Shown piece by piece: positions 5,090-64,000 of a stretch of 64,000 nt of DNA. The notes beneath the pieces were generated by a model. It saw nothing but the letters and a program-made list of their open reading frames with translations, was not told the origin of the DNA and made no database searches. Within the stretch, counting starts at the first letter, position 1. Each line of letters opens with the position of its first letter. The position numbers and the translations under genes are program-made. Source of the stretch: an archaeon. Lineage in GTDB: Archaea; Nanobdellota; Nanobdellia; Woesearchaeales; GW2011-AR9. The stretch covers positions 14,262 to 78,261 of the forward strand of contig JAUYKZ010000023.1 of assembly GCA_030704845.1 (NCBI GenBank). Reading direction: 5' to 3'.

Positions 5090-5112
5090 TATGATTCAAA
5101 GAGGTAATTATT

Positions 5113-8095: not shown

Positions 8096-8233
8096 TGCTC
8101 TTTCCACTGGTGTGTTCACCAGTGGTTTATATCAAGTTGAACATTGGTAGGAAAGAGCATGGTCACAAATTCGACCAGAGCGAAGCGAACATGCCACCGG
8201 TCTATTGACCGGTGGTGGTCGAATTTGTTTGAC
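8096..8233. repeat. two adjacent intergenic stem-loops (tgctctttcc...ggaaagagca with inner ccactggtg/caccagtgg; gtcacaaattcgacc...ggtcgaatttgtttgac with inner ccaccggtc/accggtgg)
   Basis: Read directly. Sits between the homoserine dehydrogenase and IMPase genes. The spurious minus-strand ORF 8116-8319 overlaps it. Confidence 0.5.
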
Positions 8234-8294
8234 AATTTTTTTGAACTGATTTTATTCAGAAAACCTTTTATACTCACTTCCTTCCAGAATTTAA

Positions 8295-9934: not shown

Positions 9935-9943
9935 GTTTAAGGA

Positions 9944-10372: not shown

Positions 10373-10490
10373 GGTTGTTTAATTTGGTTTTTTTAATTTC
10401 TTAATTTGATTAGTTTGTATTTCAGTTAAGATTTAAAATATTTCTTTATTTATTACTATTTAAATTTTTATTTAACTCTTTCGTTTTTAT

Positions 10491-11558: not shown

Positions 11559-11642
11559 TATAGATAAAGAACAGGTATTCCTTTATAATATTTTATGCTC
11601 TAGAGCTGATTTTCAAAAATTTAAAGATTTAATGAAATCGGT

Positions 11643-41212: not shown

Positions 41213-41266
41213 AACTTAAAATTAAGATAATCACTTTATAAAAGTTTCTTAGATGTTTTAGAAAAA

Positions 41267-41337
41267 GCCCTCGGCGAGAATTGAACTCGCGACCTTGTCC
41301 TTACCAAGGACACGCTCTACCACTGAGCCACGAGGGC
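41267..41337 (-). tRNA. tRNA-Thr (GGU)
   Basis: Minus strand reads gccctcgtggctcagtggtagagcgtgtccttggtaaggacaaggtcgcgagttcaattctcgccgagggc. Cloverleaf with anticodon loop ttGGTaa. No encoded CCA. Confidence 0.8.
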
Positions 41338-41462: not shown

Positions 41463-41534
41463 TAGGATGCCAAAAATGTCTTCCTAAATGGTTGTATTTT
41501 AAACACAGCGACATTTTTGTGCATAAAAAAGAGT

Positions 41535-41668
41535 GTCGGGGAAGGGATTCGAACCCTCGAACCCACTAAGAGACAGGATATCTTCCAAGGAAGCCAATTA
41601 TCAATAATTGGTGCCTCATCCATGTGGACTTAAGTCCTGCGCATTTGACCGGACTTTGCTACCCCGAC
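41535..41668 (-). tRNA. tRNA-Leu (UAA) with intron of about 49 nt at position 37/38
   Basis: Minus strand reads gtcggggtagcaaag...gcaggacttaag[intron tccacatggatgaggcaccaattattgataattggcttccttggaagat]atcctg-long variable arm-gagggttcgaatcccttccccgac. The acceptor and T arm are canonical. After intron removal the anticodon stem is cagga/tcctg with loop cTTAAga. The intron carries its own ccaattat/ataattgg hairpin. Confidence 0.55.
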
Positions 41669-46622: not shown

Positions 46623-49600
46623 TTAACTACACCCAGTTGTTTCTCCGCAAACTTCACATAACATGCATGTGCCATTTTGTCTTAATTGAGTTGCTCCGCA
46701 ACCACTACATTTCATGGTTGTATTTTTTGTTGAAACTATTCTGCTTGAGATTTCTTTTTTTACAGGTTCATTCGTTGATTTGATCTTAATACCCATGTCT
46801 TCAAAGTCACAAAGGAACTCTTGAAGTTCTGAGATTACAGGATGTCCCGGTACATTTAAACTTTCCCTTGCAATCTTAACTGGATCGGCTCCTTCTCTTA
46901 GACTGAAATTAACTCCATTAACAATGGTTTGCATCATTACTTGTTGTATTGGTGAGACCCAATCCATTGAGATTTCAATTCCCCCAATTATATTATTTTT
47001 AACTTCAGCAGTAAATATACATTTTTTACCAGCAAGTTTTACAACTTTTTTGTAATATGTTATTGGCGAAACTTCCAAAGGAGTTACAGTTTCTTCCGTT
47101 GATTTAGAGGTAAGTATATTCTTAAGCTGAGAGTTTTCTCCTAAAATCGAATTTAATGGTTGGCTTAATTTGCTTCCATCTCGGTAAAGAGCAACAGCTT
47201 TAATCATCAATTTCCAGGAATCATAGTATGCTTTTTTTATCTGTTCAACGGTCCATTCTTGAGGCATGTTAATTGTCTTAGAGATTGCACCAGAAACAAA
47301 TGGTTGAGTTGCCGCAAGCATATTTAGATGTCCATAAGGGTGGATATATCTTTTTCCGCCTTTACCACATTTATTAGCACAATCAAAGACTGGTAGATGT
47401 TCTTCTTTAAGATGCGGAGCACCTTCTAACATCATTGTTCCACAGATGTGTTTATTTGCTGCATCAATTTCTGTTTCTGTAAATCCAAGGGCAGTAAGGA
47501 AATTTCCTTGTTTTCCATTCATGATTCTATTATAGAAATCTTCTCCTAATGTCCATTGATTAAAGACATAACTAATATCCATGGAGTTTCCTAATTCTTT
47601 CTCTACTTTCATGATTTGCTGTTCACTAAATCCCTTAGCAGTTAAAGAATCAAGGTTAATGTAAGGGCTTCCATCAAGACTACCATTGCCAAGACAATAT
47701 TGAATAATATCTCTTGTTTGTCCTTCAGTATATCCTAATTTACGTAACGATTTTGGAACTGATTGATTAACAATCTTGAAATATCCACCACCAGCTAGTT
47801 TCTTGAATTTAACTAATGCATAATCCGGTTCAACACCGGTAGTATCACAATCCATAACTAAACCAATTGTTCCAGTTGGGGCGAGAACGGTTGTTTGTGC
47901 ATTTCTATATCCGTGATTTTCTCCTAACCGTAGAGCCTTATCCCAAGCGTTATGAGCGGCTTCTAGCAGTTCTTTAGGACAGAGAATTTGATCAAGCGCT
48001 AGTGGTTTGATTGTTAGATCTTCATAATCTTCTTCGGAGGCATTATAAGAAGCTCTTCGATGATTTCTGATTACCTTTAACATGTGTTCTTTGTTATCTT
48101 CATATCTCTCAAATGGTGCAAGGGCCGATGCTAACTCTGCTGAAGTAGCATAAGCATCACCAGTCATGATTGCTGTTAAGGCACCAGAAATTGTTCTTCC
48201 TTTATCACTATCATATGGAATTCCTTGTAACATTAACAATGAACCAACGTTAGCAAATCCTAACCCTAAAGTTCTGTATTCAAAACTTCTCATTGCAATT
48301 TGTTCAGATGGGAAATGGGCCATTAATACAGATAACTCTAATGCGATAGTCCATAATCTGATTGCATGTCGATATCCTTTAATATCAAAAATTCCAGTTT
48401 TATCTTCATAGAACTTTACTAAATTAATTGATGCAAGATTACAAGCAGTATCATCTAAAAAATTATATTCTGCGCAAGGATTACTTCCGTTAATTCTTCC
48501 TCCTTCAGGGCAAGTATGCCATTCATTGATGGTTGAATCATATTGTATTCCTGGATCGGCACTAGCCCATGCACAATAACCAATTTGATCCCACAATTCA
48601 TGTGCGGGGATAGTTTTCATTACACTCCCGTCAGTTCTTGCTTTTAATTCCCATGCTTCTCCATTTTCTAATGCTTCAAAGAATGAATTTGGAATTCTTA
48701 CAGAATTATTACTGTTCTGTCCAGATACTGTAACGTAAGCTTCAGATTCATAATGGGTATCGAATTCTTGAAGTGGTAAAGAATATCCTTGTTTTGCTAA
48801 TTCTAAAGCTCTAATAACATAATTTACCGGAATTTCGTCGTGTGAAGCAGCTTTGATTGCATTCTGTACTCCTAAATCATTTAATGGGTTTTCTTTACCT
48901 TGAGAAAGTTCGATAAGTTTGCCTAATCGTTTTTTTAGAATTTTACTTCCTGCAACCAAATCTGCAACTTTTTCTTCTTCTTTAACTTTCCACCAGATTA
49001 AACTTTCAATTTCGGGATGATCTAAATCTAATGAAATCATTTTGGCAGCTCTTCTAGTAGTTCCGCCAGACTTTATACTTCCGGCAGCGACATCAAATAT
49101 TTTAAGGAAACTCATTAACCCGCTACTTGTTCCTCCACCCGAAAGACGTTCACCTTTTCCACGTAATGCTGAGAAGTTACTTCCGGTCCCGCTACCATAT
49201 TTGAATATTCTTGCTTCTCTGATAAGTAAACTTAGAATTCCGCCATCACGAACTAAATCGTCATTTAATGCTTGAATAAAACAATTGTGTACAACAACCC
49301 CATTCCCCAAAAATTTTCCACTTTCTGTTTGAATGTCATATACATTCTTAATACCAATGCTTTCTATTGACATGATTTGTTCTTCTCTGATAAGTGGAAG
49401 ACATTTTGAACGTTGGACTAGTTTGTTGAGTAGTAGCAATTTATCATGTTTCTCCTCACTAATGAAACCAATTTGTTCGGAATATTGTTCACGAGCACTT
49501 CCATAAGCAATAATCACTTGATTTGTTCCTGCACGATTTTCTCGGCTATCAATATTCTTAGATATTCTTGCATAAATCCCAACAGAATTAAGCAATTGTA

Positions 49601-50987
49601 GCACGCCAAATGATAAATCATCTGAACTGGTCGTTAAGCAGATATCTCCCGAGTGTCTACTTTCATCTACTCTTATTCTAACACACCCATCGGCTTGGAA
49701 AAGGGTTTTAAGGAACTCTCGTTTTTCTTGAGGCGAGGAGTATACTATTTTCTTTGGAACTCGAGCTGTTCTACTTCTACTTTCTAGCAGTTCATATTCC
49801 TCAACAAAAGGATGTATCTTTTTCCCAGCTAGATGAACTCTTTTTCCATTTATATTATCACTTTTGGTATCAAATGTTGTAATCCAATAACTCACATCAT
49901 TACCAAAAACTTCCTTAATATCTTCTATTACTGATTCATGTTCGGAATCATTAATGGTTATTATCTCCATTCTCATTACGTTAGAATAAATTCCAACTGA
50001 GCCATCTCCGACAACCCATCCAGCTAATCTTGCTTTAGCTAAATCTCTACTGAAAACATTTTTTTCTTTAACATCAAGCATTAATGGTTGCTGAAGCCTA
50101 TGTCTTACTTTAACATCCTTAAGTTCCTTCCAAGTGTATTCACCATGCCATTTCTCTGCTGAGAGTACTACATGATCATTAGTTAAATCAATATAATTGC
50201 CATTTTTAAGAAGGACTCTAAATACTTCTTTTCTACCATTATCCTTAGTCGCTAGAATTTTTACAAAATCTTCTCCATCAAATACTTTAATTCCAGCTAA
50301 ATTATTTTCAACAATATCTCCAATATACATTGTGCCTTTTTCAGTATACAATTGTGTGTAATATTCTGCACACGCATGCGGTTGTGATCTAGAATATGCA
50401 TCTTTTGAGAATTCTAATCTCTTTGTGATTGGATCAACATAACTATGTCCTTGAGCAGGTCCAGTAATTCCATATGCCCAATGAAGACCAGTTGTAAACC
50501 ATTGCGGGCTGTTAGGAGCAGCAGATTGATTAATTATCATGTAAATCATTTCATCATAGAATGTTTGTGCATCATCTTCTGTTGCAAAATAATTAAATTT
50601 CTTCCCCCAATTCATCCAACATCCAGCAATTCTGTGAGCAACTTGTTTAATGCTGGTTTCACTGCCAGAAATAACTTTTCCATTTTCATCAAGAAGTAAT
50701 TCTCCATTCTCGTCACGTAAAGGCACTCCCGCTTTCCGGAAATATTTCTGAGCGAGAATATCGGTAGCTACTTGTGACCAGAAATCAGGGACTTCTACGT
50801 CATTCATTTCAAAAACAGTACTTCCATCTGGATTTTTAATAATAGAGGTTCTTCGTTCATAATTGAACATTTCTGCTGGTGGTGTATCTTCTTTAGTATA
50901 ATATCTTGGAATCTTTAATCCTTCTTGTTCAAGCATAATTTCCTCTTCTTCTTCACCCAGATTTGTTTTATTTTTCATTATAGCCAC
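46623..50987 (-). CDS. ribonucleotide reductase (class II-like, about 1085 aa extein) containing one LAGLIDADG intein; C-terminal zinc ribbon
   Basis: Extein motifs are CFIQALNDD radical-Cys, NPCAEYNFL...CNLASINL, and a terminal CSGCG...[13 protein letters not shown]. The intein spans residues 206-568 (about 363 aa). It begins CAEYY, ends VVHN followed by C, and has [11 protein letters not shown] and LFQADGCV endonuclease blocks. Confidence 0.8.
49284..50372 (-). other. intein with LAGLIDADG homing endonuclease inside the RNR gene
   Basis: The Cys1 ... His-Asn/Cys+1 splice junctions sit exactly at the RNR active-site cysteine codon (host context SQPHA|CFIQ). Coordinates were derived by residue counting. 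Confidence 0.7.
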
Positions 50988-51266
50988 CTCTTATGATTAG
51001 TTTGATTTTTTCTTGGAGTTGTTTAAGTCTATCAATTTGTTTATGTATACTTGCTTGTCATAAAATTGATATTCATTAGTTCATCATGTGAACAGAATGG
51101 ATAGTACATTAAAATCCCCCTTTTAACGTTAATATGACGAAAAATCCTGTTTAAATAGTTTTTAGTAATCTAATATGTGGTTTAAAGAAGTAGTTTCTGA
51201 TATCTTAGAGATGATAAGAAGTTATTAGAATTAGAGACATCTTTTTAGATGTTAAGATTTAATCAG

Positions 51267-51413
51267 AACTATTCGGCGCTGTCCAGAAAGTCATAAAAAT
51301 GTATACTGGGGCACGGCGCTCATTACGAGCTTCACTTCGTTTGCTCGTGCGCCTCGACTACGTCAGGGCGCCAGTATACAAAAAAGAGACTTTCTGGACA
51401 GCGCCAACTATTC
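51267..51413. mobile_element. second MITE-like element: 18-bp perfect TIRs, 8-bp flanking direct repeats, GC-rich core
   Basis: The flanks both read aactattc (51267-51274 and 51406-51413). The TIRs are ggcgctgtccagaaagtc (51275-51292) and gactttctggacagcgcc (51388-51405). The interior is GC-rich with nested stems. Confidence 0.5.
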
Positions 51414-51449
51414 GTTAACCTTTTAAATCATTTAATCTTTCTTACCATA

Positions 51450-51965
51450 ATGGTTACTTCAATCATCATTAAAAGCCTTTATTTTTTCTTACCGGTATAT
51501 TTTGCTAATATGGCTCCGGTATTATTCAAATGGTTACCTTTTAAGAAACCAATAAGTAAAAAAATGTTTGGTAAAAACAAAACGTGGAGAGGATTGATTG
51601 TGGCTATATTAGTTGGTGGAATTGTTTTCTGGGCACAGAAACTTCTTTTTAATGCTGGTTTTGTTTCCCTAGCTTTCATTGATTATCATGATTTCCCCAT
51701 ATACTATGGTTTTCTGTTAGGAATTGGAGCAATTTTAGGTGATCTTGTCAAGAGTTACTATAAACGTAAAGTAGGAATAAAACCGGGCGATTCTTGGTTA
51801 TTTTTTGATCAAGAAGATTTCGTGATTGGAGCATTTTTATTCTCATTATTTTATTATGTTCCGCCTATAGAAATTGTTTTTACATTATTCCTGGTAAGTC
51901 CATTTTTACATATGGCAGCAAATTATACCGGTCATCTTCTTGGAATTCGTGAAAAACCGTTATAA
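51450..51965 (+). CDS. carS: CDP-archaeol synthase (CarS, DUF46 family)
   Basis: About 170 aa and multi-TM. The GDLVKSYYKRKVGIKPGDSWLFFDQED region resembles the CarS cytoplasmic loop motif. Confidence 0.55.
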   Translation: MVTSIIIKSLYFFLPVYFANMAPVLFKWLPFKKPISKKMFGKNKTWRGLIVAILVGGIVFWAQKLLFNAGFVSLAFIDYHDFPIYYGFLLGIGAILGDLVKSYYKRKVGIKPGDSWLFFDQEDFVIGAFLFSLFYYVPPIEIVFTLFLVSPFLHMAANYTGHLLGIREKPL

Positions 51966-51998
51966 AAGTTTATAATAAATAGTTCATTCTAGGTTAAT

Positions 51999-52364
51999 AT
52001 GACTAAAAGTTTGACTGATATTATTAAAGATGCACCAGCAATTGCGGTGCCATTTGTAGCTCTTGGTGCAGGAGCATTATTTTATGCTTTTGATAATATT
52101 CTGGGAAATGATTCAACAGGGCTAGATTATTGCGTTGCGGCATCTTCGGGATTAATTGGAGCATTTCTCCCACGTAAATCACAGAAAATTGCTTCTTTAG
52201 TTACTATTGCAACAACACTTTCTCCAGAATTAATAGGTTTCTATACTAGCCAAGAACCAACGGGAGGAGAAGCTATAATTGCTGCTAAAGGTTTTCTTTT
52301 TGGGATGAGTTATGCTCTTACTAAAGTTTATCTTGGCATTATGGCCGTTTCTTCAAGGAAGTAG
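51999..52364 (+). CDS. small membrane protein
   Basis: Hydrophobic, Gly/Ala-rich helices. Confidence 0.3.
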   Translation: MTKSLTDIIKDAPAIAVPFVALGAGALFYAFDNILGNDSTGLDYCVAASSGLIGAFLPRKSQKIASLVTIATTLSPELIGFYTSQEPTGGEAIIAAKGFLFGMSYALTKVYLGIMAVSSRK

Positions 52365-52905
52365 ATCGTTTCTTTTTTCTAAACCATTTATATTGTTTAT
52401 AGAGTCCATATAAATTCATTACACCTGCGAAAGAAGCAGCTATCAAAGGAAGTTTAATTACAAGAATAATTAACACCCACGTTCTCGTGAAATAAGCTGG
52501 TGCTTCGAATTTGGTATAAAAATAAATCCCCTGAGATAATATAAAGAATAATACCGCAAGACTTGCAATGGAACTTTCTGAATAAGATGCTATTTTCAAC
52601 AACATCCCTAAATTAACCAATCTATCAACTAATAAATCAAATGATTTGCCTTCCGCTGTTGCGCCTTTAATTCTTGCTACGACTCCGTCTAAAGCATCAA
52701 GGAATAGATGAATTAAGACGAAAAGAAAGAATAACAGATGATTTTGAAATAGAAAATAAACCGCGAGTATACCAGCAAAAAGAGATGCGAAAGTCACCAT
52801 ATTTGCGGTAACACCTTTCTTAACAAGGTAGTGAGCTACTTTTTTCATCGGCTTCTCTTTTTTACGACGGAACCATGCCATAACTCTAGAGTTTAAATTA
52901 GCCAT
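52339..52905 (-). CDS. CDP-alcohol phosphatidyltransferase (archaetidylserine/inositol-phosphate synthase-like)
   Basis: DALDGVVARIKGATAEGKSFDLLVDR matches the D-G-x2-A-R-x8-G-x3-D-x3-D signature. Multi-TM. Confidence 0.7.
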   Translation of the reverse strand: MANLNSRVMAWFRRKKEKPMKKVAHYLVKKGVTANMVTFASLFAGILAVYFLFQNHLLFFLFVLIHLFLDALDGVVARIKGATAEGKSFDLLVDRLVNLGMLLKIASYSESSIASLAVLFFILSQGIYFYTKFEAPAYFTRTWVLIILVIKLPLIAASFAGVMNLYGLYKQYKWFRKKKRSTSLKKRP

Positions 52906-52944
52906 GGTAATATATATAAAGTATCACTATAAAAACGTTTCCAT

Positions 52945-53217
52945 ATGATGTTATATGATGCAGAAGTTCAGAAAGTATTGGATAAAATAAAAGAATCTAA
53001 TGCAAAAACCGTTTGCATTCAGCTACCGGATGGTATGAAACCTTATGCAAAAGAAATTGAAGAAAAGATTAGGGAAGAAACTGGAGCAAGAGTTTTAATC
53101 TGGCTTGGAAGTAATTTTGGTGCTTGTGATATTCCTTTAGGTTTAAATAAAATGGGAGTCGATCTTCTCGTCTCTTGGGGACATAACATTTTCCATAAAA
53201 AAATGGAGGGATGGTAG
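52945..53217 (+). CDS. dph2: Dph2 N-terminal segment (2-(3-amino-3-carboxypropyl)histidine synthase), ends at in-frame TAG
   Basis: VCIQLPDGM...VLIWLGSNFGACD...SWGHNIF aligns with the archaeal Dph2 N-terminus. Confidence 0.6.
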   Translation: MMLYDAEVQKVLDKIKESNAKTVCIQLPDGMKPYAKEIEEKIREETGARVLIWLGSNFGACDIPLGLNKMGVDLLVSWGHNIFHKKMEGW

Positions 53218-53220
53218 AAG

Positions 53221-53970
53221 ATGGAAACATTATTCTTAGAAGCGACTTATTCAGGAACCGTAGAATTATGTCCAGAGACTATTTCTTACCTAACGAAGAA
53301 AGGGTATACCAAGATTGGATTATATGCTTCCGTGCAGTTTGTTGGAAAACTGGAGACGGTAGAATCACAACTTAATGAACTAGGGGTCACTTCGGTTACA
53401 TCACGACCAGATAGAACTCACGTTAAAGGACAATTGTTAGGTTGCGACAATTATCATAATTCTTTAAATTTAGATAAAGATATTCAAGTTTACCTATATG
53501 TCGGCGATGGACGTTTTCATCCTCTAGCTTTAGTTTATGCTCAGAAGGATTCTAATGAGATGAAAGAAATTATTTGTAATGATCCCATTAATAAGAGGAT
53601 GGTTTTAATGGGAATAGAAGACATTTGTACTATTCTTAAAAAATATCGTGGGTCGTTGGTTAAATTCTTCACAGCTAAGATGGTGGGTGTTCTTATTACG
53701 ATTAAACCTGGGCAAGAACAATTTAAACCGGCTCTATTATTAGAGAAGAAATACCTCGATAAAAGGTTCTATTACTTTATTGACAATGTTATATCTTTTG
53801 ACCAGCTCGAAAATTTCAATTTTATCGACGTATGGGTCAATACTGCTTGTCCGAGGGTAGGATTTGACGACCAAGAGAAGTTTGTTAGAGGAGTAATTAA
53901 TCTAAATGATGCTCTCTCGGTCGAGGAGATCCTTGGAAAAGAGAGTGTATTTAATAAAAAAATCCAATAA
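53221..53970 (+). CDS. dph2: Dph2 remaining segment, same frame, ATG one codon after the TAG
   Basis: QLLGCDNYHN, VGDGRFHPLAL and VNTACPRVGFDD align with the Dph2 domain 2/3 cysteine motifs. Confidence 0.6.
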   Translation: METLFLEATYSGTVELCPETISYLTKKGYTKIGLYASVQFVGKLETVESQLNELGVTSVTSRPDRTHVKGQLLGCDNYHNSLNLDKDIQVYLYVGDGRFHPLALVYAQKDSNEMKEIICNDPINKRMVLMGIEDICTILKKYRGSLVKFFTAKMVGVLITIKPGQEQFKPALLLEKKYLDKRFYYFIDNVISFDQLENFNFIDVWVNTACPRVGFDDQEKFVRGVINLNDALSVEEILGKESVFNKKIQ

Positions 53971-54186
53971 TCTCTACTGAGGACAATTCTATATGGATTT
54001 TTAGTGTTCCCTATAATGGATTAAGATTCTAAACTCTGCACTCATATGAAACAATCATTGCTAAAAAGTTCTCGTCAGAGAGTCGTATTCTATCGACGAT
54101 AGGAGAAAGCTTTATATACAATGGTTGTTTAATTCACGTCGAAAGCTAGTCTTTCAAAATAAAAAAACAGAGAGGTGGGATGAAAT

Positions 54187-54570
54187 ATGGCTGAACTTGT
54201 AGCAAAAGTTGGACTTAAAAAAGAGCCTGGATTTCTCTATTTCCTAGACAAAGGCGGAAACGTTGCTCGAGCTCGTATGAGTCGAGTTAAAATGCGAGGA
54301 AAATCCAAGATCGAAGTAGTAGCAAAAGTAGGAGTTAAAAAAGTATCCGGATACCTTTACTTTATTGATAAGAAAGGTAATGTTTCAAGAGCAAAAATGG
54401 CTCGTGGAAGAAAATCTGGAAGCGGTAAGAAAAAAGTTGCTAAAAAGAAAGTAGCAAAACGTAAAGCTGCTCCAAAAAGAAAAGCTGCTAAAAAGAAATC
54501 GGTTAAGAGAAAAGCTGCTCCAAAAAGAAAAGTTGCTAAGAAAAAAGTAGCTAAGAAAAGAAAAAGATAA
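54187..54570 (+). CDS. lysine-rich small protein with a duplicated module of about 31 aa and a histone-H1-like KRKAAPKRK tail
   Basis: ELVAKVGLKKEPGFLYFLDKGGNVARARMSR is repeated as EVVAKVGVKKVSGYLYFIDKKGNVSRAKMAR. Tandem DNA repeats of agaaaagctgctccaaaaagaaaag encode the tail. Confidence 0.5.
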   Translation: MAELVAKVGLKKEPGFLYFLDKGGNVARARMSRVKMRGKSKIEVVAKVGVKKVSGYLYFIDKKGNVSRAKMARGRKSGSGKKKVAKKKVAKRKAAPKRKAAKKKSVKRKAAPKRKVAKKKVAKKRKR

Positions 54571-54610
54571 TTTTTTTTTCTTATTTTTTTTTAATTTTTT
54601 TAATAGTGAA

Positions 54611-54620
54611 TTTTATAAAA
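54611..54620 (+). promoter_or_regulatory. putative TATA box (ttttataaaa) about 26 nt upstream of the dus ATG
   Basis: Read directly. Confidence 0.35.
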
Positions 54621-54640
54621 AGATACATTAATTCTAGGTT

Positions 54641-55573
54641 ATGTTACCAAAATTTAGCAGTAAAGCTTTCCTTGCCCCTATGGCAGGTGTATCTGACCCA
54701 GCTTTGCGTCTAATCTGTAAAGAGCTTGGAGCAGGGTTAGTTGTCACAGAATTTACAAGTATTCATGCTATTACTGCTAAAAGGGATGATATCACTAAAT
54801 TTATTGAATTCTCTCCAAAAGAAAAGCCAATTTCGGTACAATTGTTTGGTTCAGATTTAGAAAAATTGAAACAAGCAGTTAAGATCGTTGAGCCACATTT
54901 TGATATTATTGATTATAACCTGGGTTGTCCAGCCCCCCATCTTACTCAACAGATGGCTTGTTCTGCTCTATTACAAGAACCAGAGTTAACAAGGAAAATC
55001 TTCAGAACAATGGTTAAAGCGACAAAAAAACCAATAACGATTAAGATAAGGTCGGGAGTTTCTTTGCCTGATAAGTGGAAAGAAATAGCTTTAATCGCAG
55101 AAGAGGAAGGTATAGCTATGATCACTTTCCATCCAAGAACTGTTAAACAAGGGTACTCTGGACAGGCCGATTGGTCTTTGATAACAGAATTGAAAGAATT
55201 GGTAAGTATTCCTGTCGTTGGTAATGGAGACGTGCAGACGCCCGAAGATGCTAAAAGAATGTTTGAAGAAACAGGATGCGATTATGTTATGATTGGAAGA
55301 GCTGCAGGTAAAAATCCGTTTATTTTTACTCAAATAAATGATTTTTTATCCACTGGATCTTATAAAGAAGTTGATCTAAAAGAAAGGATTATGGTATTCT
55401 TTAGATATCTTGAATATTCAAAAATGTATCCCACAATTAAATTTGTAAATATCCGCATGCAAGCTATGAATTTCACTAAAGGAGTCAAAGGTGGAAAAGG
55501 ATTACGGGAAAAGTTAATGAAGGCAAAGGATATTGAAGAGTTAAAAAGCATTTTGGAAGGTGCAATATTATAA
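54641..55573 (+). CDS. dus: tRNA-dihydrouridine synthase
   Basis: FLAPMAGVSDPALRLICKELGAGLVVTEF N-terminus of Dus TIM-barrel enzymes. A catalytic Cys lies in NLGCPAP. Confidence 0.75.
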   Translation: MLPKFSSKAFLAPMAGVSDPALRLICKELGAGLVVTEFTSIHAITAKRDDITKFIEFSPKEKPISVQLFGSDLEKLKQAVKIVEPHFDIIDYNLGCPAPHLTQQMACSALLQEPELTRKIFRTMVKATKKPITIKIRSGVSLPDKWKEIALIAEEEGIAMITFHPRTVKQGYSGQADWSLITELKELVSIPVVGNGDVQTPEDAKRMFEETGCDYVMIGRAAGKNPFIFTQINDFLSTGSYKEVDLKERIMVFFRYLEYSKMYPTIKFVNIRMQAMNFTKGVKGGKGLREKLMKAKDIEELKSILEGAIL

Positions 55574-56298
55574 TGAAAAAAGGACATCAACAGTACATTT
55601 TGGAAAAGGAATCGGTTAAACATCGAGTTCAAAAACTGTTAAGTAACCATGGTTATTGTTCACGAAGGAAAGCTGAAGATTTGATTAAAGATGGTCGAGT
55701 TACGGTAAATGGAAAGAAAATAACCATCGGCGATCAGGCAACCGAGAAAGATACGATAGCTGTTGATGGAAAAGTTGTTGGTAGGGAAAGGAAGGTATAT
55801 TTAATCTTTAACAAGCCAGTTGGATGTGTAACTGCGTTACGTGATCCTCAATATAAAACTGTAATGAGTTATATCTCCGTGAAGGAAAGAGTTTTTCCGG
55901 TCGGTAGATTAGATTATAACACTTCAGGATTATTATTATTGACAAATGATGGAGATTTTGCTAACAAAATTATGCATCCAAGTCATGAAATTAAAAAGAA
56001 ATATTTGGTAACCCTAGATGGTCCAATCGATAAAAAAGCTATCGATAATCTTCAGCACGGAGTACAGTTAGATGACGGTAAAACAAGACCTGTTAAAACT
56101 CATGTAGTTGAACCACATGTAATTGAGATAAGTATCCATGAAGGTAAAAATAGGATTGTTCGAAGAATGTTTACTGCTCTTGGTTACCGAGTAAAAGCTC
56201 TTAGTCGGGTAGCTGTGGGTAAATTATCTTTAGGAGATTTAAAAGTAGGTACGTATCGTAACCTTACCAAGAAGGATATTGATCGGATATTTATTTGA
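55573..56298 (+). CDS. pseudouridine synthase, RsuA/RluB family (S4 domain plus catalytic domain)
   Basis: N-terminal S4-like RVQKLLSNHGYCSRRKAEDLIKDGRVTVNG and the catalytic VGRLDYNTSGLLLLTNDGD aspartate motif. Confidence 0.7.
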   Translation: MKKGHQQYILEKESVKHRVQKLLSNHGYCSRRKAEDLIKDGRVTVNGKKITIGDQATEKDTIAVDGKVVGRERKVYLIFNKPVGCVTALRDPQYKTVMSYISVKERVFPVGRLDYNTSGLLLLTNDGDFANKIMHPSHEIKKKYLVTLDGPIDKKAIDNLQHGVQLDDGKTRPVKTHVVEPHVIEISIHEGKNRIVRRMFTALGYRVKALSRVAVGKLSLGDLKVGTYRNLTKKDIDRIFI

Positions 56299-56340
56299 GA
56301 TTTGGTAAAGTTTAAATAACCAATAACTTATTTTCAAAAT

Positions 56341-57042
56341 ATGAAAAAAATAATCATTCCTTGCGTGTTTTTACTCTTAGTTTTTATTGTGTCTTCTTGC
56401 TCAACTCAATTTGTTTGTTCAGATGGAAGTGTTACAGACTCTCCAGATAACTGTCAAGGAGCCGATGTACAGGATAATAGTGATGTTGTTCAAGCAGATG
56501 AAGTTGTAGGATTTCCTGGCGGATTAATGGAACTAATCCAGAAAGGTCAGAATGTTCAAAGTTTTACTTATGATTATAAAGAAATTAGTAAACCAAAAGA
56601 ACCAACTTATCCGTATAAAATTTATGGTTCTACTGTTAAAAGATATCTTCCAGTTAAAACTGGAATTCTTAACCAGAATGAACTGGATGTAATTATTTCT
56701 GACAGATTATCGAAAACATCTCTGGGATACTGTGAAAGTTTGAAATATTGTATTAAACAAGGCGAGATTGGTTCAGTTGATTTTAGTGAATACTATGTAG
56801 ATACCCCATTTGATTGGTTAGATAGAATTCAACGTGCAGAGATAGAAACTAAGAATGAAGAATTATTTGGACGTGGAGTTTGGAAAGTTATCGCAAATAA
56901 CGGCGAATTTACGATTTGGATTGAGAATTATTATGGTGTTCCATTGAAAGTATCTACAGTTTCTGAAACTTACGAATTTAGAAATCCCAAATTTAACACC
57001 ATTAAGAGTAATGATGTTGAGTTTGAGGAAATTTCTTCTTAA
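56341..57042 (+). CDS. hypothetical lipoprotein
   Basis: Signal peptide with SSCS lipobox. Confidence 0.35.
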   Translation: MKKIIIPCVFLLLVFIVSSCSTQFVCSDGSVTDSPDNCQGADVQDNSDVVQADEVVGFPGGLMELIQKGQNVQSFTYDYKEISKPKEPTYPYKIYGSTVKRYLPVKTGILNQNELDVIISDRLSKTSLGYCESLKYCIKQGEIGSVDFSEYYVDTPFDWLDRIQRAEIETKNEELFGRGVWKVIANNGEFTIWIENYYGVPLKVSTVSETYEFRNPKFNTIKSNDVEFEEISS

Positions 57043-57338
57043 TAATTTCTTTTATTCAATTGAATAAGTGGTTTCAGGCGATATCAACACTTCTTTGTTT
57101 TCATACCCGAGAAGATTATTTAATTGTTCCAGTGTTCCTTCATATCCAACAAGAACCATTTTTTTAGATTGGTCGGTTATTCTTACATCTGGAAGATTGA
57201 CCAATTTTTCAAGAAGAGTTTCTAGAGATAAATCTTTAGATTTAATTCTTAGAATGTAATTTTCCATAATCTGGTTTAGCTGTGATTTTATTTAAAGGTT
57301 CTTAAAATTTATAAACTACGCTAGATTCTCACCTTAAA

Positions 57339-57980
57339 ATGGATGATTATATTGAAATTTTTATCGATTCTCAGGATTTAATAACAAGTAGTCCTAACAT
57401 TCCATTTCAAAATAAATTGGATGAATTGATCCAGCGTATCGAGAAAGAAAATGCTTGTTCTATTCCAGCCTTAGGGTTAGAAGAAAACCTTCAAGGTTCG
57501 GTAACACTGGGAGTTAATGCTTGGATGCACCAATCTGTATTTGATGGAATGAGAACAGAATTGGAAGATACTTACGGTAATGTTCAAGTTAAAATAGCTA
57601 ACGTTCTTTTTGAGGTTAGATCTCGTGATTATGGTTTAACTAGAGATTTGGTTGGAAAGTTAAGAAAACGTAATATTGTAGTTGAAGGTTACTGGCTTAT
57701 TGATCTTAATAAAGCTAGATTTATTGACTGTTTATCAGATAGAACTTATAAAGATATTAAACAGATGGCTAATGAAAAAGAAAGATTCTGGTATCTTAGT
57801 TGTAGAGCTGAAAAGAGTTCATATTTTGAAGATTTGTTTGAAACTGAACTTGTTCCTTACAAGAATGGCGATGTGTTTTCTCCGCATGTGAATTTTGGTA
57901 TGATTAAAGGTTTTGTAATACCCGATGATCTTAAGAGGTATATTTCTGAAATTAATCTTTATAATGCCCATGGAATTTGA
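57339..57980 (+). CDS. hypothetical protein
   Basis: ORF only. Confidence 0.3.
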   Translation: MDDYIEIFIDSQDLITSSPNIPFQNKLDELIQRIEKENACSIPALGLEENLQGSVTLGVNAWMHQSVFDGMRTELEDTYGNVQVKIANVLFEVRSRDYGLTRDLVGKLRKRNIVVEGYWLIDLNKARFIDCLSDRTYKDIKQMANEKERFWYLSCRAEKSSYFEDLFETELVPYKNGDVFSPHVNFGMIKGFVIPDDLKRYISEINLYNAHGI

Positions 57981-58162
57981 GTTAAGAAAAAATTGAATGT
58001 CTTATTCTCCTAAAACTTCTAATACTTTTTTCTCTAGTCGTGTAAGTTTGACTTTTTCTAAATGGATGTTGGTACTATGATGTTCTGTTTCATTCGCCAG
58101 GTGTATTTTAAGTGGGCTAATATTGATAAACAAATAACTATTAAATTTAATCCCACGTTATA

Positions 58163-58203
58163 GGGGTGTCTACAAAAGCGAAAGATTTAAATATGTAGAC
58201 ACC
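58163..58203. repeat. hairpin ggggtgtctac-N21-gtagacacc, 12 nt upstream of the fic ATG
   Basis: Read directly. It has the same 9-bp stem as the hairpin starting at the fic stop codon (59107-59138). Confidence 0.5.
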
Positions 58204-58214
58204 TTTAAAATATT

Positions 58215-59108
58215 ATGTTTATAGAAATTAGAAAAAGAGGAAAGAGTAAAAAGTATTATCTTGTTCATTCATATAGAGAAAGTGGTAAAATCAAGAGAAT
58301 TTCTCGTTATCTTGGTTCTAATCTTAACGAGAATAAACTACTAGAATTAGAGAAAAGGGCAGAACAGCATATCTTGGAAGGAATAAAAGAAAGAAGTATT
58401 CTTGAGTTTGAGTTAACTAAAAAAGAGATTGAAGAGTATAAAAAGTATGAGACAGATATTGAAATAAAACATTTACAAACATTAAATTGGAAACGATTTA
58501 CTGAAACTTTTACTTATAACACAAATGCTATAGAGGGTTCAACTGTTGCCCTCTCTGAAGTTAAGGAATTGTTGAGTGGAGAAGAAGAACCTCAAGGTGC
58601 GGACGATATTGAAACTCTTAATGTAGCAAAAGCCGTTGAATATATTCAAAAATCTAAAGAAAAGATAACTTTGAATTTTATTAAGCATCTCCATTTAATT
58701 TGTTTTAAAGGAACTAAGGGGTTTGCGGGTAAGTTGAGAGAAGTAAATGTTGTAATTAGGGATAGTCAAGGAAATGTTGTTCATGAAGGAGCACCAATAA
58801 ATAAAGTAAGGAGTTTGGTTGAAGAGCTTTGTAATTGGTATATTAAACATAAAAATAAATATCCTCCGTTACTTCTTGCTGCCGTCATGCATAATCAGTT
58901 TGAGAAGATACATCCATTTCAAGATGGTAATGGAAGAGTCGGAAGATTATTATTAAATTATGTTTTGTTACAGCACAAATATCCTCCAATTAACGTTCGT
59001 TTACGAGATCGAATTAGGTATTACAAGTGTTTACAAGAATATGATCAAAAGAATGATATCAAGTCTACTTTGAAATTTTTGATTAGTGAATATAAAAAAC
59101 AGTTTTAG
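58215..59108 (+). CDS. fic: Fic/Doc family protein (putative AMPylase)
   Basis: HPFQDGNGRVGRLLLNYVL matches HPFx[DE]GNGRxxR. TAG stop. Confidence 0.75.
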   Translation: MFIEIRKRGKSKKYYLVHSYRESGKIKRISRYLGSNLNENKLLELEKRAEQHILEGIKERSILEFELTKKEIEEYKKYETDIEIKHLQTLNWKRFTETFTYNTNAIEGSTVALSEVKELLSGEEEPQGADDIETLNVAKAVEYIQKSKEKITLNFIKHLHLICFKGTKGFAGKLREVNVVIRDSQGNVVHEGAPINKVRSLVEELCNWYIKHKNKYPPLLLAAVMHNQFEKIHPFQDGNGRVGRLLLNYVLLQHKYPPINVRLRDRIRYYKCLQEYDQKNDIKSTLKFLISEYKKQF

Positions 59109-59138
59109 GTGTCTACGTTTGGATTATGTAGTCACCCT
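59107..59138. repeat. hairpin aggtgtctac-N12-gtagtcaccc followed by a T-run, starting at the fic stop codon
   Basis: Read directly. One mismatch relative to the upstream stem. Followed by cttttttagggg. Confidence 0.5.
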
Positions 59139-59278
59139 TTTTTAGGGGTGGGATTTCATAATAAGAAGGGTATGCCCCCGCCGTACAAAGGCGTCTTATT
59201 CTAAATCTCGATTAGAATGTGATGGTTGTAATTACAATTAAATTGTTGATGTATTTATATATTTCTATTCTGTCGAGG

Positions 59279-59569
59279 CTATTTCTTCATTTGTGTCTCA
59301 TCTGGTACAAATGTCGGGTTGTTAAATGGGTTTAGTATTTGTATTAATGTACCAAAATAACCTTTCTTTTTATCTAAATCTCCTCTGAATAATATAATCA
59401 AAGCGATAGCATTTGGAACAAGAAATTCGGAAAAATCCATGATATTATCAGCTAGAGAAATATCTGGATAAATTAGGGAAATAATGAATGAAGAAATAAA
59501 TGACCCTGTTGCAACTCTAAAAAAAATAATTCCCCACCTGAACCCCTTAAAGATCTGTTCTTCATTCAT
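59279..59569 (-). CDS. small membrane protein
   Basis: Hydrophobic ORF. Confidence 0.25.
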   Translation of the reverse strand: MNEEQIFKGFRWGIIFFRVATGSFISSFIISLIYPDISLADNIMDFSEFLVPNAIALIILFRGDLDKKKGYFGTLIQILNPFNNPTFVPDETQMKK

Positions 59570-60355
59570 TTATTCTTTGGAATTCTGCTTATATTAAAAA
59601 TTGTGTTTACACTTTCCAAAAACCGTTTTACAAACCACTTAAACAACCCCCTCTACTAACCCTGCATGGTAAAATACAAATTTACAACCCATGCGCGAGA
59701 ACTTCGTTATTGTGAAATCTGCGATTAACAACTTAGCTTCCATGAAACTATTCTATGTAAAATTTGCCTAAAAGAAGCTGTCTCAATAATGAAACGAGGT
59801 GATAATCGTGGATAAGATCATGGTGATCTCTCTCTTTATTGGAGCTTTAAGCATTCTTGGGAGTTATATTTTCCTGATTATATCTTTCTTAAGGAAGAAT
59901 TATTTTTCTAGTTCTAAATTTGGAGGATATAGGGTCTGAGACTGCAAAGAATAAAGGAATCGAGGTTCAAAAGCCGTTCCTACTTAATGTTTCAAACATT
60001 GAAGCTTTGAGCATACACACGGAGGTACACGACAATGGAAACGACAAATGAATTTAAGGAAAACATACACAGAAGCAGAGCTTCTGGTACATCCGAAAAT
60101 GAGTTTCGGAATGAACCAATAGTAGAAACACAGATTAGTAAGAGTAAGGATGGGAAGTACGTCTTGCATAAGACAATAATCACAGATATTAAACCGGTGG
60201 GGTATTATCAGAAGGTTATTGGGGGGGAGTAATTCCTCCTTTTAACCAACGAAAAGTTTATAAATAATGTCAACATTTAATGTTTACGATAAAACAGAGG
60301 CAGGTGAATAAGATGGCGAAAAGAGAGAAGAATAATGGTCTGAGGATAGATATAA

Positions 60356-60754
60356 ATGTTAAAAAAAAAGAATATAAAGTATTTGAAACTATTAACTTCA
60401 GAAGATATATTGGATATAACTATTCTGATAGAAACCAATGAAATCAAGAGATTTGCTATCAACTACAGAGCAAATATTCATGATGGATGGCGTGAGATTT
60501 ATCGGGTAGATAACTATCACGGCTATCTACATGAGATGAAATTTTGGCGAAATCAAGAACAAATAATTATCAAAGATAAAAATGGTTGGTCTTCAAAAGA
60601 TATTTTCAATTATTATATCGATGAGGTTACGGAAAACTTTCAAAGATATAGGATATATTTTGATAGAGCATTAAGACAAAATAGAACAGAAAGAAAAAAA
60701 AATGATAAAAATGAAACACGAATTAGAGAAGAAGGAACTAAAAAGAAAGGCTGA
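60356..60754 (+). CDS. hypothetical protein (first gene of a small overlapping operon; possibly starts at 60313 via an A9 tract)
   Basis: An upstream 43-codon ORF beginning at 60313 is in another frame. It overlaps this ORF at a run of nine A residues (60358-60366). Confidence 0.3.
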   Translation: MLKKKNIKYLKLLTSEDILDITILIETNEIKRFAINYRANIHDGWREIYRVDNYHGYLHEMKFWRNQEQIIIKDKNGWSSKDIFNYYIDEVTENFQRYRIYFDRALRQNRTERKKNDKNETRIREEGTKKKG

Positions 60755-61148
60755 ATCAATTAAAGGATTAGTTGATGATATACTTAGTGAAAAAATTGAT
60801 GTGCCAGATAACGCGTTAATTATAGATTTTGATGCAACTCAAAATATCTTTACTAAAAAAAGGATAGAGTTATTAGATACTATTAATTCTTACCAGCCGG
60901 CTTCTGTTCAAGAATTATCAGATCTTGTTAAGAGGAAAAAACAAGCGGTTGATAGAGATTTGAAGATGTTAGAAGAGTTTGATGTGATCACACTTGAAAA
61001 ACGAGGTAAGTTTACTGTACCAACTGTAAAAAGAGAGATTATAATACTCAGCATCAAGAAACCAAAACCACAAACAGAAATCATAATCAGTGCTGAGGTC
61101 TATGTTGATAGTATTAATATTAACAAAATAATGGAGATACCACAATGA
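60702..61148 (+). CDS. winged helix-turn-helix protein (MarR/ArsR-like)
   Basis: SVQELSDLVKRKKQAVDRDLKMLEEFDVITLEKRGK wHTH-like segment. Overlaps its neighbours. Confidence 0.35.
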   Translation: MIKMKHELEKKELKRKAESIKGLVDDILSEKIDVPDNALIIDFDATQNIFTKKRIELLDTINSYQPASVQELSDLVKRKKQAVDRDLKMLEEFDVITLEKRGKFTVPTVKREIIILSIKKPKPQTEIIISAEVYVDSININKIMEIPQ

Positions 61149-61402
61149 CTATTAAAAGAAAAGTAAAACGTGTTGTCGATGGAGATACTTTTGAAGTATT
61201 TAAAGCCGTTAGAGACAGCCATTTTATTCGGTTAGCTGGTGTTAACGCCCCTGAGAAATATCAGAAAGGGGGAATAGAGGCAACAAATAAACTAAGGCGT
61301 TTAATTGAGGGTAAGACTGTTACTTTAGTCCCCACAGGGAGGAGTTATGGTAGGTTGGTAAGTGATGTAAAAAGCAGTGGGAAAAAAGTAAATAAACTAT
61401 AG
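61145..61402 (+). CDS. truncated staphylococcal-nuclease-like (SNase/OB-fold) protein
   Basis: VVDGDTFEV...IRLAGVNAPEK corresponds to the DGDT...RLxGxDxPE core of thermonuclease. At 85 aa it lacks the C-terminal catalytic Arg/Tyr region. ATGA start/stop overlap with the upstream gene. Confidence 0.4.
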   Translation: MTIKRKVKRVVDGDTFEVFKAVRDSHFIRLAGVNAPEKYQKGGIEATNKLRRLIEGKTVTLVPTGRSYGRLVSDVKSSGKKVNKL

Positions 61403-61546
61403 GGTTTATGGGGGATGTACCAGAAGATGAGGGCGGCTGAGGAGAAGACGAGCAAGTGATAATGCAAGTTATGTTACTGGACAGACTTTATTTTTTGTAT
61501 ACTTGAGAGAATGTGGGTTGTGCGTCGAGATTTATAAAGCGCGTTG

Positions 61547-62425
61547 TTAGTACCGTCCCTTATCTTTGATGATGCCAGGGAGGTATGGTAGTTTCCGGTT
61601 AGAGTAAGTCATGTACGGTGATCTATATCCATCATCCCATGTATCTACCTTCGACTCATTATCTTTTGGCATACCAACAGCTACTCCGCGAGATGCTCTG
61701 CCGTTTATACCATAGTAACCATCAAAACTGAACCTGCTAATGGAGCCACGAGCAACAGGCCAGATCTTTTTATTTGGTGGCGGCAATAAAATCAGTGCTC
61801 TTTCATTACCTTCACGGATTTCTGGTGGCAGCTGTGCAAATGGTCTCGTGTACAAAAATTCAACAAGATCATCATTAAATCTATTCAATTCAACATATTC
61901 ATTAAGCGGAATTCCTGAAATTGAAAAATCTCGTCTATCGCTGAAGTTAAAAATTTTTTTATATCTATCCTTAGAATCATTCCACACTAAACCTTCCGGA
62001 TCAATATAAACAGTAAGTATGTCATCACTTCGTTTAACTGCTATGCTCATCCATTCACCATAATAATCTTCTTTTTCCATATCTTCGGCAACTATTTCCT
62101 GTTCTGCTGTTAATTTTTTTTCTAGATTTGCAATTAAAAAACCAAAGACTTCAGAAGGACGAGGATGACGCTCATAACCTTTATCGGTAAGACGAGCTAG
62201 GCTGGCATTGTAGGTAAAGACTTCTTTGAAATCTACATTACGACTATTACGAACTGCTTTCGGTTCAAAAGTTACACCATTGTAGAATGATTCAGTTTCA
62301 GCTGGTCCAGGTGATACCGAATGTAAAGGATCTTCACCCGTAACTATTGTATCTTCGAGAGATACATCTTTAGAAACTCGAAATTCTTTTCCATCCAATT
62401 CATCCAATAAATGTTTCAGTGCCAT
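61547..62425 (-). CDS. hypothetical protein
   Basis: ORF. Composition is somewhat more GC-rich than the backbone. Confidence 0.3.
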   Translation of the reverse strand: MALKHLLDELDGKEFRVSKDVSLEDTIVTGEDPLHSVSPGPAETESFYNGVTFEPKAVRNSRNVDFKEVFTYNASLARLTDKGYERHPRPSEVFGFLIANLEKKLTAEQEIVAEDMEKEDYYGEWMSIAVKRSDDILTVYIDPEGLVWNDSKDRYKKIFNFSDRRDFSISGIPLNEYVELNRFNDDLVEFLYTRPFAQLPPEIREGNERALILLPPPNKKIWPVARGSISRFSFDGYYGINGRASRGVAVGMPKDNESKVDTWDDGYRSPYMTYSNRKLPYLPGIIKDKGRY

Positions 62426-62547
62426 AACTTCTCTAAAAGAATATCTTGTTTTTAAACATATTGAAAGAATGTTCAGTTGTAAGCTAGTTTCAAAATATAG
62501 TATCCACTACATAAAACATTTTAAACAAGTACTTACGAATACCCATA

Positions 62548-63135
62548 ATGAAACTCACAACCCCCTTATTATATACTGCATTGACTTTATCTCCAGCGTG
62601 TACTGAGACAACATCGTACCAGAAAACTACAGTAGATGCTACTGCTGTAACAAAACCAGAAGTTCCTAAAGAGCGAACTATAGACGATCTCGTGAATATG
62701 AGAAAACAAGAAGCGAGAGATAAGAAAATTGGTGAGAAAGCCACAGTTATTTTACATCTACTGGGAGAAATTCGAGTTCCCCCTGAGTTTTATGCATTTG
62801 AAGCTGGCTCGTTAAGAATGGAGTGTGAGAGTAGTGCTTTTTATGCTGGTGGGTTGCGTGACCACGGTCATGAAATAAAATATAACGGAGAATTAGTTTT
62901 CTCTGATAAAGTCCTGATGAGCTATGATGGGGTTCTTCCTCAAGAGACTTCCGTTCAGATATATAATCCAAAACCTGGTGACTGGGAAAAAAGATTAGAA
63001 GAAATATATCAGAGTATTGAAGTAACTCCAGAGAAAATCGAAGAATCACTACAAAAAGGAAAGAGAAAACTAGAAAATGATAAACAAAGAGAGTTGATTA
63101 AGCTGTATGGATTAGAAGAATATTTTTCTGATTAG
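62548..63135 (+). CDS. hypothetical secreted protein
   Basis: Signal-like N-terminus. Confidence 0.3.
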   Translation: MKLTTPLLYTALTLSPACTETTSYQKTTVDATAVTKPEVPKERTIDDLVNMRKQEARDKKIGEKATVILHLLGEIRVPPEFYAFEAGSLRMECESSAFYAGGLRDHGHEIKYNGELVFSDKVLMSYDGVLPQETSVQIYNPKPGDWEKRLEEIYQSIEVTPEKIEESLQKGKRKLENDKQRELIKLYGLEEYFSD

Positions 63136-63298
63136 ATTACGGTGATCGATGATTGGTTTTAGTCAGTGTTGGTAGAGTGACAAAGAAATAGTGATTATGT
63201 ACAGTTTGTATCATATAATTCTAACTACAACTTAACCAGTTCACGGCCGATGATCTTCTTCGAGTACTTCGCAACCACGTTGAGCATGGTGCTGTACT

Positions 63299-63943
63299 TC
63301 ATGACGAAGAGTGGCGTGTCCTGCTCGTAACGACCGGGATGTTGAGAAAGCCACTCACGCAGGTACTTCGCGGCTCGGTAGCACGAGGTTCGAGGTACAT
63401 ACCCTGGCCATTACTGAACTCTCCGTACCACCCCGTGTCGTCGTCGAAGAGGTCGGAGAGCATCGAGCTGCCGCAGAGGTAGCGCCTCACCAGCACTTGG
63501 TTCAGGACGTTGGGTGCATCGCCACACACGCAATTGACCCCGCAGTGGCAGTCGGCAGGGCAGGACGCGCATGTTTCTCCGCCTCCGCACGCGCCATCGC
63601 CACAGCGGGGTCGCGGGATGCACGAATTGCCGACGCAGTCTTCGTTGGCGGCACACGTGTTAGGACAGCTTCCTCCGCAGCCGTCTGTCCCGCACTCCTT
63701 GTTAGCGCAGCTCCGGACGCAGCCTACACAGGTTCCGTTCAGGCAGCCATTGACACAGTCCTCGACAACGCGGACGTTCTGGCCACAGACATCGAATTCC
63801 CAGAGGTCACCCACGCCGCAGCGTCGACCCGCAATGTTCGGTGCGCAGTAGCCCGGTTGCCCTGGAGATCCGGTACAGGTGTGATCCTGATGACATTGGT
63901 AGTCCCATTCGCAGGGCGGAGTGCAGCGGCCACCCTGGCACAC
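63299..63943 (-). CDS. cysteine-rich repeat protein (CGDG/CxxC repeats), probably N-terminally incomplete at the window edge; GC-rich gene
   Basis: Repeated C-x-x-C-G-D-G-like units (RCGDGACGGGETCASC, CGTDGCGGSC). GC-rich codon usage unlike the rest of the window. The minus-strand frame is chosen over overlapping plus-strand ORFs because of the regular Cys spacing. Confidence 0.35.
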   Translation of the reverse strand: MCQGGRCTPPCEWDYQCHQDHTCTGSPGQPGYCAPNIAGRRCGVGDLWEFDVCGQNVRVVEDCVNGCLNGTCVGCVRSCANKECGTDGCGGSCPNTCAANEDCVGNSCIPRPRCGDGACGGGETCASCPADCHCGVNCVCGDAPNVLNQVLVRRYLCGSSMLSDLFDDDTGWYGEFSNGQGMYLEPRATEPRSTCVSGFLNIPVVTSRTRHSSS

Positions 63944-64000
63944 CCAACCTGGCCGGCATTCGTTATCGACGTTGCAGAGGGAGCACCAGTCGCCGAGTGG

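Follow-up and report, generated by a model that had tools for sequence, protein, structure and literature searches.

Integrative elements that target tRNA genes have been catalogued for Thaumarchaeota, where the tyrosine integrase stays intact after integration (PMC6563490). These elements carry the tyrosine recombinase at one end and a variable cargo, their composition is unlike that of the host, and they insert at the 3' end of tRNA genes, where short direct att repeats are formed (PMC6563490). Another kind is represented by the SSV-type 'suicidal' integrases, which recombine at a site within their own ORF and whose gene is therefore cut in two when the element integrates (PMC7253208). A further term of comparison is given by the Cys-rich secreted proteins of Myxococcota, which are built of CxGKxCGxDGCGGSCGxC and CGDGxCxxGExCxxCPxDCGxC modules.

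The window, i.e. the whole stretch of 64,000 nucleotides analysed here, belongs to an archaeal MAG contig and switches from AT-rich to GC-rich DNA shortly before its end. In our opinion, the junction at 63,237 is probably a real but rearranged edge of a GC-rich mobile island carrying a tyrosine integrase, or of the remnant of such an island. The related islands are similar to the archaeal tRNA-targeting elements in their terminal tyrosine recombinase, their variable cargo and their host-unlike composition and, as observed in the relative L014, in their integration at a tRNA 3' end with short direct att repeats. They differ from these elements by a GC content 15 to 30 points above that of their hosts, by the non-canonical introns of their target tRNA genes, by an integrase less than 30% identical to any of those of sequenced plasmids and phages and, in the window, by a visible end that is an integrase fragment and not an att repeat. 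Mobile elements are usually AT-richer than their hosts or similar to them.

Composition of the window

The change point of a maximum-likelihood two-segment fit was located at 63,236 and the GC content jumps from 0.33 to 0.61 at 63,236/63,237, in agreement with the abrupt switch at about 63,237 described in an earlier note on this DNA. The 63,237-64,000 segment has a GC content of 0.614, which corresponds to z = 11.8 when compared with 764-nt windows across the remaining part of the window (mean 0.333, sd 0.024, maximum 0.412). In the 1-kb profile, values range from 0.29 to 0.39 over the first 63 kb and reach 0.54 in the last kilobase, and the 100-nt profile rises from 0.35 to more than 0.6 between 63,150 and 63,400. 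The GC content at third codon positions (GC3) is 0.70 in the minus-strand ORF of the tail and 0.21-0.26 in six host genes, so that the step is not an amino-acid effect. The same note had described every frame of the tail as open, which was overstated: the six frames contain 6, 8, 3, 1, 6 and 5 stops in 254 codons, fewer than the 7-21 stops per frame of AT-rich control DNA. The tail is composite and contains, in different frames, a fragment of an integrase gene (fragment R) and a Cys-rich repeat gene (Table 1).

Table 1. Features of the window and of related loci, with their coordinates in each sequence.
Feature	Sequence	Coordinates	Strand	Remarks
AT-rich accessory flank	Window	57339..62425		Fic, DUF7718, HVO_A0114-type HTH, small SNase-like ORF and hypotheticals (Pfam)
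Last AT-rich gene, hypothetical protein of 195 aa	Window	62548..63135	+	MDP3990628.1, Q8Q01_05500; GC 0.37, GC3 0.27
AT-rich spacer	Window	63136..63242		Up to the change point, plus 6 nt (ccagtt) before R
Fragment R	Window	63243..63380	-	46 codons of a tyrosine integrase; GC 0.55; match to P0001 and family HMM
Cys-rich repeat gene, 3' part	Window	63299..64000	-	Translation; start beyond the window
tRNA-Ser(CGA) gene, repeat	L014	9739-9842, 13920-13934		
tRNA-Glu(UUC)-like and tRNA-Ser-like genes	L093; L004; L002	~820-1085; 5061-5243; 8174-8332		Read by eye

The AT-rich side is archaeal, with CDC48, two ribonucleotide reductases and an intron-containing tRNA. The latter is a 135-nt tRNA gene (41534-41668, minus strand; 45.7 bits with Rfam), presumably interrupted by an intron, which was not called by ARAGORN and adjoins tRNA-Thr(GGU) at 41266-41337. 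The ribonucleotide reductase genes are adjacent (46623-50987 and 44554-46617, both on the minus strand) and the 1454-aa class II enzyme contains an intein with a LAGLIDADG homing-endonuclease domain. In the same part of the window, three 48-nt tandem repeats (54427-54570) form the Lys/Ala-rich tail at the end of ORF 54187-54570. Apart from tRNA genes, the AT-rich part reaches 50% GC or more in a single patch, at 51264-51423, which carries a 23-nt inverted repeat (51270-51292 / 51388-51410; 91% complementary) without Rfam match at E <= 1 and is possibly an unannotated structured RNA.

Closer to the junction, the genes of the flank are accessory and of plasmid type, and the local GC content is 0.43-0.46 at 61,200-61,850. 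The accessory cluster at 58215-61402 includes Fic, DUF7718 and HVO_A0114-type HTH genes, the last two as overlapping ORFs, and an 85-aa SNase-like ORF. This flank is possibly an older mobile or variable region beside the junction, in which case the place may be an insertion hot spot. The last AT-rich gene has a host-like codon composition and its product matches no Pfam family.

An integrase fragment at the junction

The protein encoded by R is identical (46/46) to residues Y226-R271 of P0001, an integrase encoded outside the window and described below. Among 5.8 billion proteins, P0001 was the top match for the minus-strand translation (91% identity, 20% of the query). When an HMM of the integrase family, built from 86 members, was run on the six frames of 63,101-64,000, R was the sole hit (model positions 219-266 of 392, E ~4e-12), and no second integrase fragment was found with this model in the whole window. 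Integrase homology past the 46 codons in another frame, as expected for a frameshifted gene, was not found in the six-frame search. An insertion of the AT-rich flank into an integrase gene was also considered and rejected, given that no other integrase piece or GC-rich patch occurs in the 63 kb. The catalytic or invariant residues R190, K217, R279/H280, W302 and Y312 all lie outside R, and the fragment is therefore non-functional by itself.

On its C-terminal side, R ends at the host junction (...KKIIGR|ELVKL*), at codon 271/272; at the other, N-terminal end it adjoins the Cys-rich ORF, which is in a different frame. Two mid-gene breakpoints, host|R and R|Cys-rich gene, are thus present 138 nt apart. 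Neither a tRNA gene (ARAGORN) nor a known RNA (Rfam, even at E <= 1) was detected in the spacer and junction.

The Cys-rich gene

The Cys-rich frame is open over 233 codons up to base 64,000 and exits the window without a start codon. Its translation contains 31 cysteines in 206 residues (15%), arranged in CGDGxC...ETCxSCPxDC and ECGxDGCGGSC modules, of which CANKECGTDGCGGSCPNTC and PRCGDGACGGGETCASCPADC are found in the ORF. As the earlier note claimed, a CxxC/CGDG repeat gene is thus present on the minus strand and extends past the window. The note had assigned the whole GC-rich DNA to this gene, and here a correction is needed, since the 63,243-63,380 segment is the integrase fragment. The genuine Cys-rich coding part covers about 63,382-64,000 (GC 0.63). 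Below about 63,381, the frame runs out of frame through R, and the stop codon at 63,299-63,301 is reached by chance read-through of the fragment. Judging from this arrangement, the gene looks truncated and is probably a pseudogene.

When 185,579 reference genomes were searched by tblastn, the only relatives were three Myxococcota MAG proteins (28-51% identity), which are huge secreted proteins made of the same two Cys modules. The high-GC bacterial type of the repeats, already proposed in the note, is in agreement with this result. Relatives were also recovered in the protein search (P0002-P0004), and the modules were compared with those of P0002-P0004 and of the L090 and L092 proteins. Both module types of the Myxococcota proteins are present in the window ORF, which differs from these proteins by its location on an archaeal contig beside an integrase fragment and by its C-terminus, replaced by out-of-frame integrase sequence. 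Its GC3 of 0.70 is below the usual GC3 of Myxococcales. The Cys-rich fragment gave no Pfam match at E <= 0.1, no NCBIfam match at E <= 1 and no sequence match in the PDB. The sequence has no protein in a collection of 15 billion proteins, although neighbouring proteins of the same MAG are present there, which is consistent with a gene that was not annotated as a CDS. The gene is foreign and probably broken. That an archaeal island should carry cargo of bacterial type agrees with a foreign origin, and it is also the main argument for a chimera, as discussed below.

The intact integrase P0001 and its family

A tyrosine recombinase with its catalytic residues is present on the same contig, outside the window. 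This protein, P0001 (MDP3990636.1), is a 391-aa 'site-specific integrase [archaeon]' with a PF00589 domain. It is encoded by the same 114,882-bp archaeal MAG contig as MDP3990628.1, an exact match to the product of the last AT-rich gene of the window, and should lie about eight genes past the window end according to the order of the accessions. P0001 matches the NCBIfam XerA, XerC and XerD models below their cut-offs. In an alignment of 25 sequences (A1), R190, K217, R279, H280, W302 and Y312 are invariant or nearly so.

The family comprises 86 members at E <= 1e-3, from archaea and from bacteria (Desulfosarcina, Nitrospinota and Armatimonadota). Close relatives of P0001 share 43-65% identity with it. 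No relative was found in the GTDB representative genomes and nothing was found in IMG/VR, and sequenced plasmids and phages gave only distant integrases of archaeal viruses or plasmids, all less than 30% identical.

The closest relative, P0010 (L093, 1164-2342), is 52% identical to P0001 over residues 4-274 and 94% identical over residues 275-389, a part that includes the otherwise variable coiled-coil tail. Such a sharp mosaic implies a recombination breakpoint at codons 272-275. This position is within four codons of the point where R meets host DNA (271/272), a coincidence that may reflect a site prone to recombination within the integrase gene.

Other particularities were noted in the family. 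L037 (471-1484) and L058 (544-1695) each contain one in-frame stop, at integrase model positions 228-230, with good homology on both sides; these could be pseudogenes, sequencing errors or the sign of an alternative genetic code in those hosts. The 496-kb contig of L017 bears two integrases of the family in tandem (9869-12321), which overlap by about 90 nt. In several further loci, another tyrosine recombinase, more distantly related, is found within 10 kb.

Related islands

In all the loci of close relatives that include flanking host DNA, the integrase is located at a step from AT-rich to GC-rich DNA. For P0014, found in four assemblies of different sources (L004-L007), the GC content passes from 37-45% to 55-65% and the step coincides exactly with the integrase start. 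The corresponding values are 28-41% and 52-56% for P0011 (L002), 31-40% and 51-57% for P0010 (L093, from another sample), and about 40% and 52-59% for L011 and L012. L014 (110,821-bp contig) and L015 (146,358-bp contig) contain a 4-kb island of 51-56% GC with host DNA of 33-43% GC on both sides. These loci come from different samples and different assemblers (JGI, ENA, Logan). The more distant family members have the GC content of their hosts. The related elements have no cargo gene in common and share the integrase alone.

On its left, the L014 island begins at the 3' end of a tRNA-Ser(CGA) gene, whose last bases, GAGCACTGGCG, recur at the right edge, 4.1 kb away, as a direct repeat of 14/15 nt. 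The two copies form a classical attL/attR pair. This tRNA gene was called by ARAGORN only after in-silico removal of 16-20 nt in the T-loop region. L002, L004 and L093 also have intron-rich tRNA-like genes immediately upstream of the integrase, as judged by visual inspection (Table 1). The target tRNA genes have non-canonical introns in the D-loop, the anticodon loop or the T-loop, and these intron-bearing genes were missed by ARAGORN and by Rfam at the gathering threshold. L003 is GC-rich throughout, carries ArdC-N and DUF87 ATPase genes and shows, upstream of int, a sequence resembling a tRNA 3' end; it may represent a free, plasmid-like form.

The junction in an independent assembly

The Logan contig L001 (run SRR13727534) is identical, without any mismatch, to the window from 54,530 to 63,272. 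It encodes the 195-aa protein of the last AT-rich gene and crosses the junction by 36 nt. Its stop at 63,272 lies exactly 30 nt past the first base of R (63,243), i.e. k-1, Logan assemblies being made with k = 31; such a stop is expected if R occurs a second time in these reads. The Logan gene set lacks the intact integrase, which fits this repeat explanation. No sign of an alternative host continuation at the junction was found in Logan. The left end of L001, at 54,530, falls inside a low-complexity tandem repeat with no exact repeat within the window and carries little information. The second junction, between R and the Cys-rich gene (about 63,381), stems from the MAG assembly alone.

Discussion

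Integrated elements that lie at a step in composition are already known, and the window offers a further case with an unusually strong contrast. The size and direction of this contrast, the recurrence across many samples, the intron-bearing tRNA targets and the scar made of an integrase fragment are less ordinary. In the limited literature searched, nothing specific was found about these elements, about GC-rich islands in DPANN archaea or about the run accession.

The likeness to the SSV-type integrases (PMC7253208) is that a piece of integrase abuts host DNA, at codon 271/272 and near the P0001/P0010 breakpoint. The locus differs from them in several respects: the contig also encodes an intact 391-aa integrase, the piece is truncated on both sides so that codons 226-271 alone are left, the relatives keep an intact integrase next to the tRNA, and no tRNA-like core is present at the window junction. 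The split integrase that defines the SSV type was found neither here nor in the relatives, which argues against this reading.

The arrangement that we propose is as follows. Elements of the P0001 clade would consist of GC-rich DNA, as those of the relatives do, and, as in the relatives, site-specific recombination would insert them at the 3' end of a tRNA gene of the host, giving the order tRNA-int-cargo-att. The intact integrase lies beyond the window, which would show the far (distal) end of the island. At this end, a Myxococcota-type gene for a Cys-rich secreted protein would have lost its 3' end, so that the order would be host DNA, a 138-nt integrase duplicate (codons 226-271), the truncated Cys-rich gene, further genes and the intact integrase. 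The island would end at a tRNA gene beside P0001, followed again by host DNA. The visible end would be a scar left by a secondary recombination or deletion, for example a second integration followed by decay, and not a clean att site. A distinct composition with a sharp boundary is observed in the window itself. The L014 island is bounded at each end by an att repeat, one of which belongs to a tRNA gene, and host DNA is observed on both sides in L014 and L015; the window includes the left flank and its visible end carries no tRNA fragment. The acquisition would be evolutionarily recent, since its composition has not drifted to that of the host (GC3 of 0.70 compared with 0.21-0.26).

Several observations count against an island edge at 63,237. 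The two breakpoints, host|R and R|Cys-rich gene, are so close to each other that they form an odd structure, and none of the relatives has an integrase fragment at its distal end. No att-like repeat involving the junction was found within 50,000-64,000. The cargo is Myxococcota-like and the host archaeal. Finally, the Logan and MAG assemblies probably derive from the same reads.

A first alternative, which we regard as rather unlikely, is that the AT/GC junction is real and that the assembly followed a wrong path through the 138-nt repeat R. The host-R sequence would then continue into the N-terminal part of the integrase or into something else, and the Cys-rich gene would adjoin the other copy of R, either in the same island, as an inversion or deletion isomer, or in another genome of the sample. 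The k-1 stop of L001 together with the intact P0001 indicates that the reads contain two or more copies of R, and an exact repeat of 138 nt, close to the length of short reads, is poorly resolved by assemblers. Moreover, the R|Cys-rich junction has no independent support and the point at which the Cys-rich ORF is interrupted, within the gene, coincides exactly with the edge of R. However, both copies of R are found in a single MAG contig, which normally needs support from pairs or reads, and any pairing of the four edges of R needs both host|R and Cys-rich|R in the reads. The length of R, 138-139 nt as reasoned from the codons, is also not k-1 of a usual final k (55, 127 or 141); an origin of R as a k-mer artefact was rejected for this reason, and no obvious assembler artefact accounts for it.

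A chimera of two organisms, in which the AT-rich archaeal contig would have been joined to high-GC bacterial DNA (for example from a Myxococcota with its own integrase) through chimeric reads, contig merging or processing at the binning stage, appears unlikely. The difference of 28 GC points established within a few bases would fit such a join, as would the restriction of the Cys-rich relatives to Myxococcota among the 185,579 reference genomes, the presence of the integrase family in bacteria such as Desulfosarcina, Nitrospinota and Armatimonadota, and the failure to find a Logan protein from the GC-rich side. Nevertheless, a second assembler gives the same junction k-mers without alternative host continuation. 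K-mers that do not occur in the reads cannot arise in a de Bruijn assembly, which makes a chimera at 63,237 unlikely, and a false k-mer join would need a 20-30-mer shared across the AT/GC switch. The switch is located at an integrase fragment and not at a random place, the same integrase clade stands at an AT-to-GC step in every close-relative locus with a host flank, in different samples and from different assemblers, and one relative possesses both host flanks and att repeats. The earlier note had left the choice between an assembly chimera and a very recent foreign insertion, and had asked that the junction be scrutinised. The insertion is supported by the integrase fragment together with its intact counterpart on this contig, by the independent assembly and by the steps of the relatives, and the chimera at 63,237 is not supported.

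As for a native gene with a GC richness purely due to its amino acids (Cys, Gly, Pro, Ala and Arg), the Cys-rich protein does contain 15% Cys and 15% Gly, but the third-position composition (GC3 of 0.70 against 0.21-0.26 in host genes) refutes this explanation and R, whose amino-acid make-up is ordinary, still has a GC3 of 0.76, so that its probability is practically nil.

The GC-rich tail should neither be discarded as contamination without a check of the reads nor be taken as native archaeal coding capacity. In the quality control of MAGs, genuine islands of this kind would be lost through filters that trim contigs where the composition changes.

A broader idea, which is quite unlikely as a whole, is that the P0001 clade represents a lineage of GC-rich (52-65% GC) integrative plasmids that pass repeatedly from GC-rich donors to small, probably symbiotic AT-rich archaea (28-45% GC), via intron-bearing tRNA genes, with bacterial-type cargo (in the window, the Myxococcota-like secreted Cys-rich protein) and with a recombination switch internal to the integrase. 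If this were true, GC-rich plasmids would be a vector for gene flow across lineages and possibly across domains, and R, which ends near the P0001/P0010 breakpoint (codons 271-275), could as a recombination partner of the intact gene switch the integrase on or off by excision or inversion.

This integrase clade marks strongly GC-rich islands in AT-rich archaea of many environments. Elements that are much GC-richer than their hosts are unusual and indicate that DNA was recently received from donors of another composition, a matter relevant to the acquisition of genes by genome-reduced archaea.
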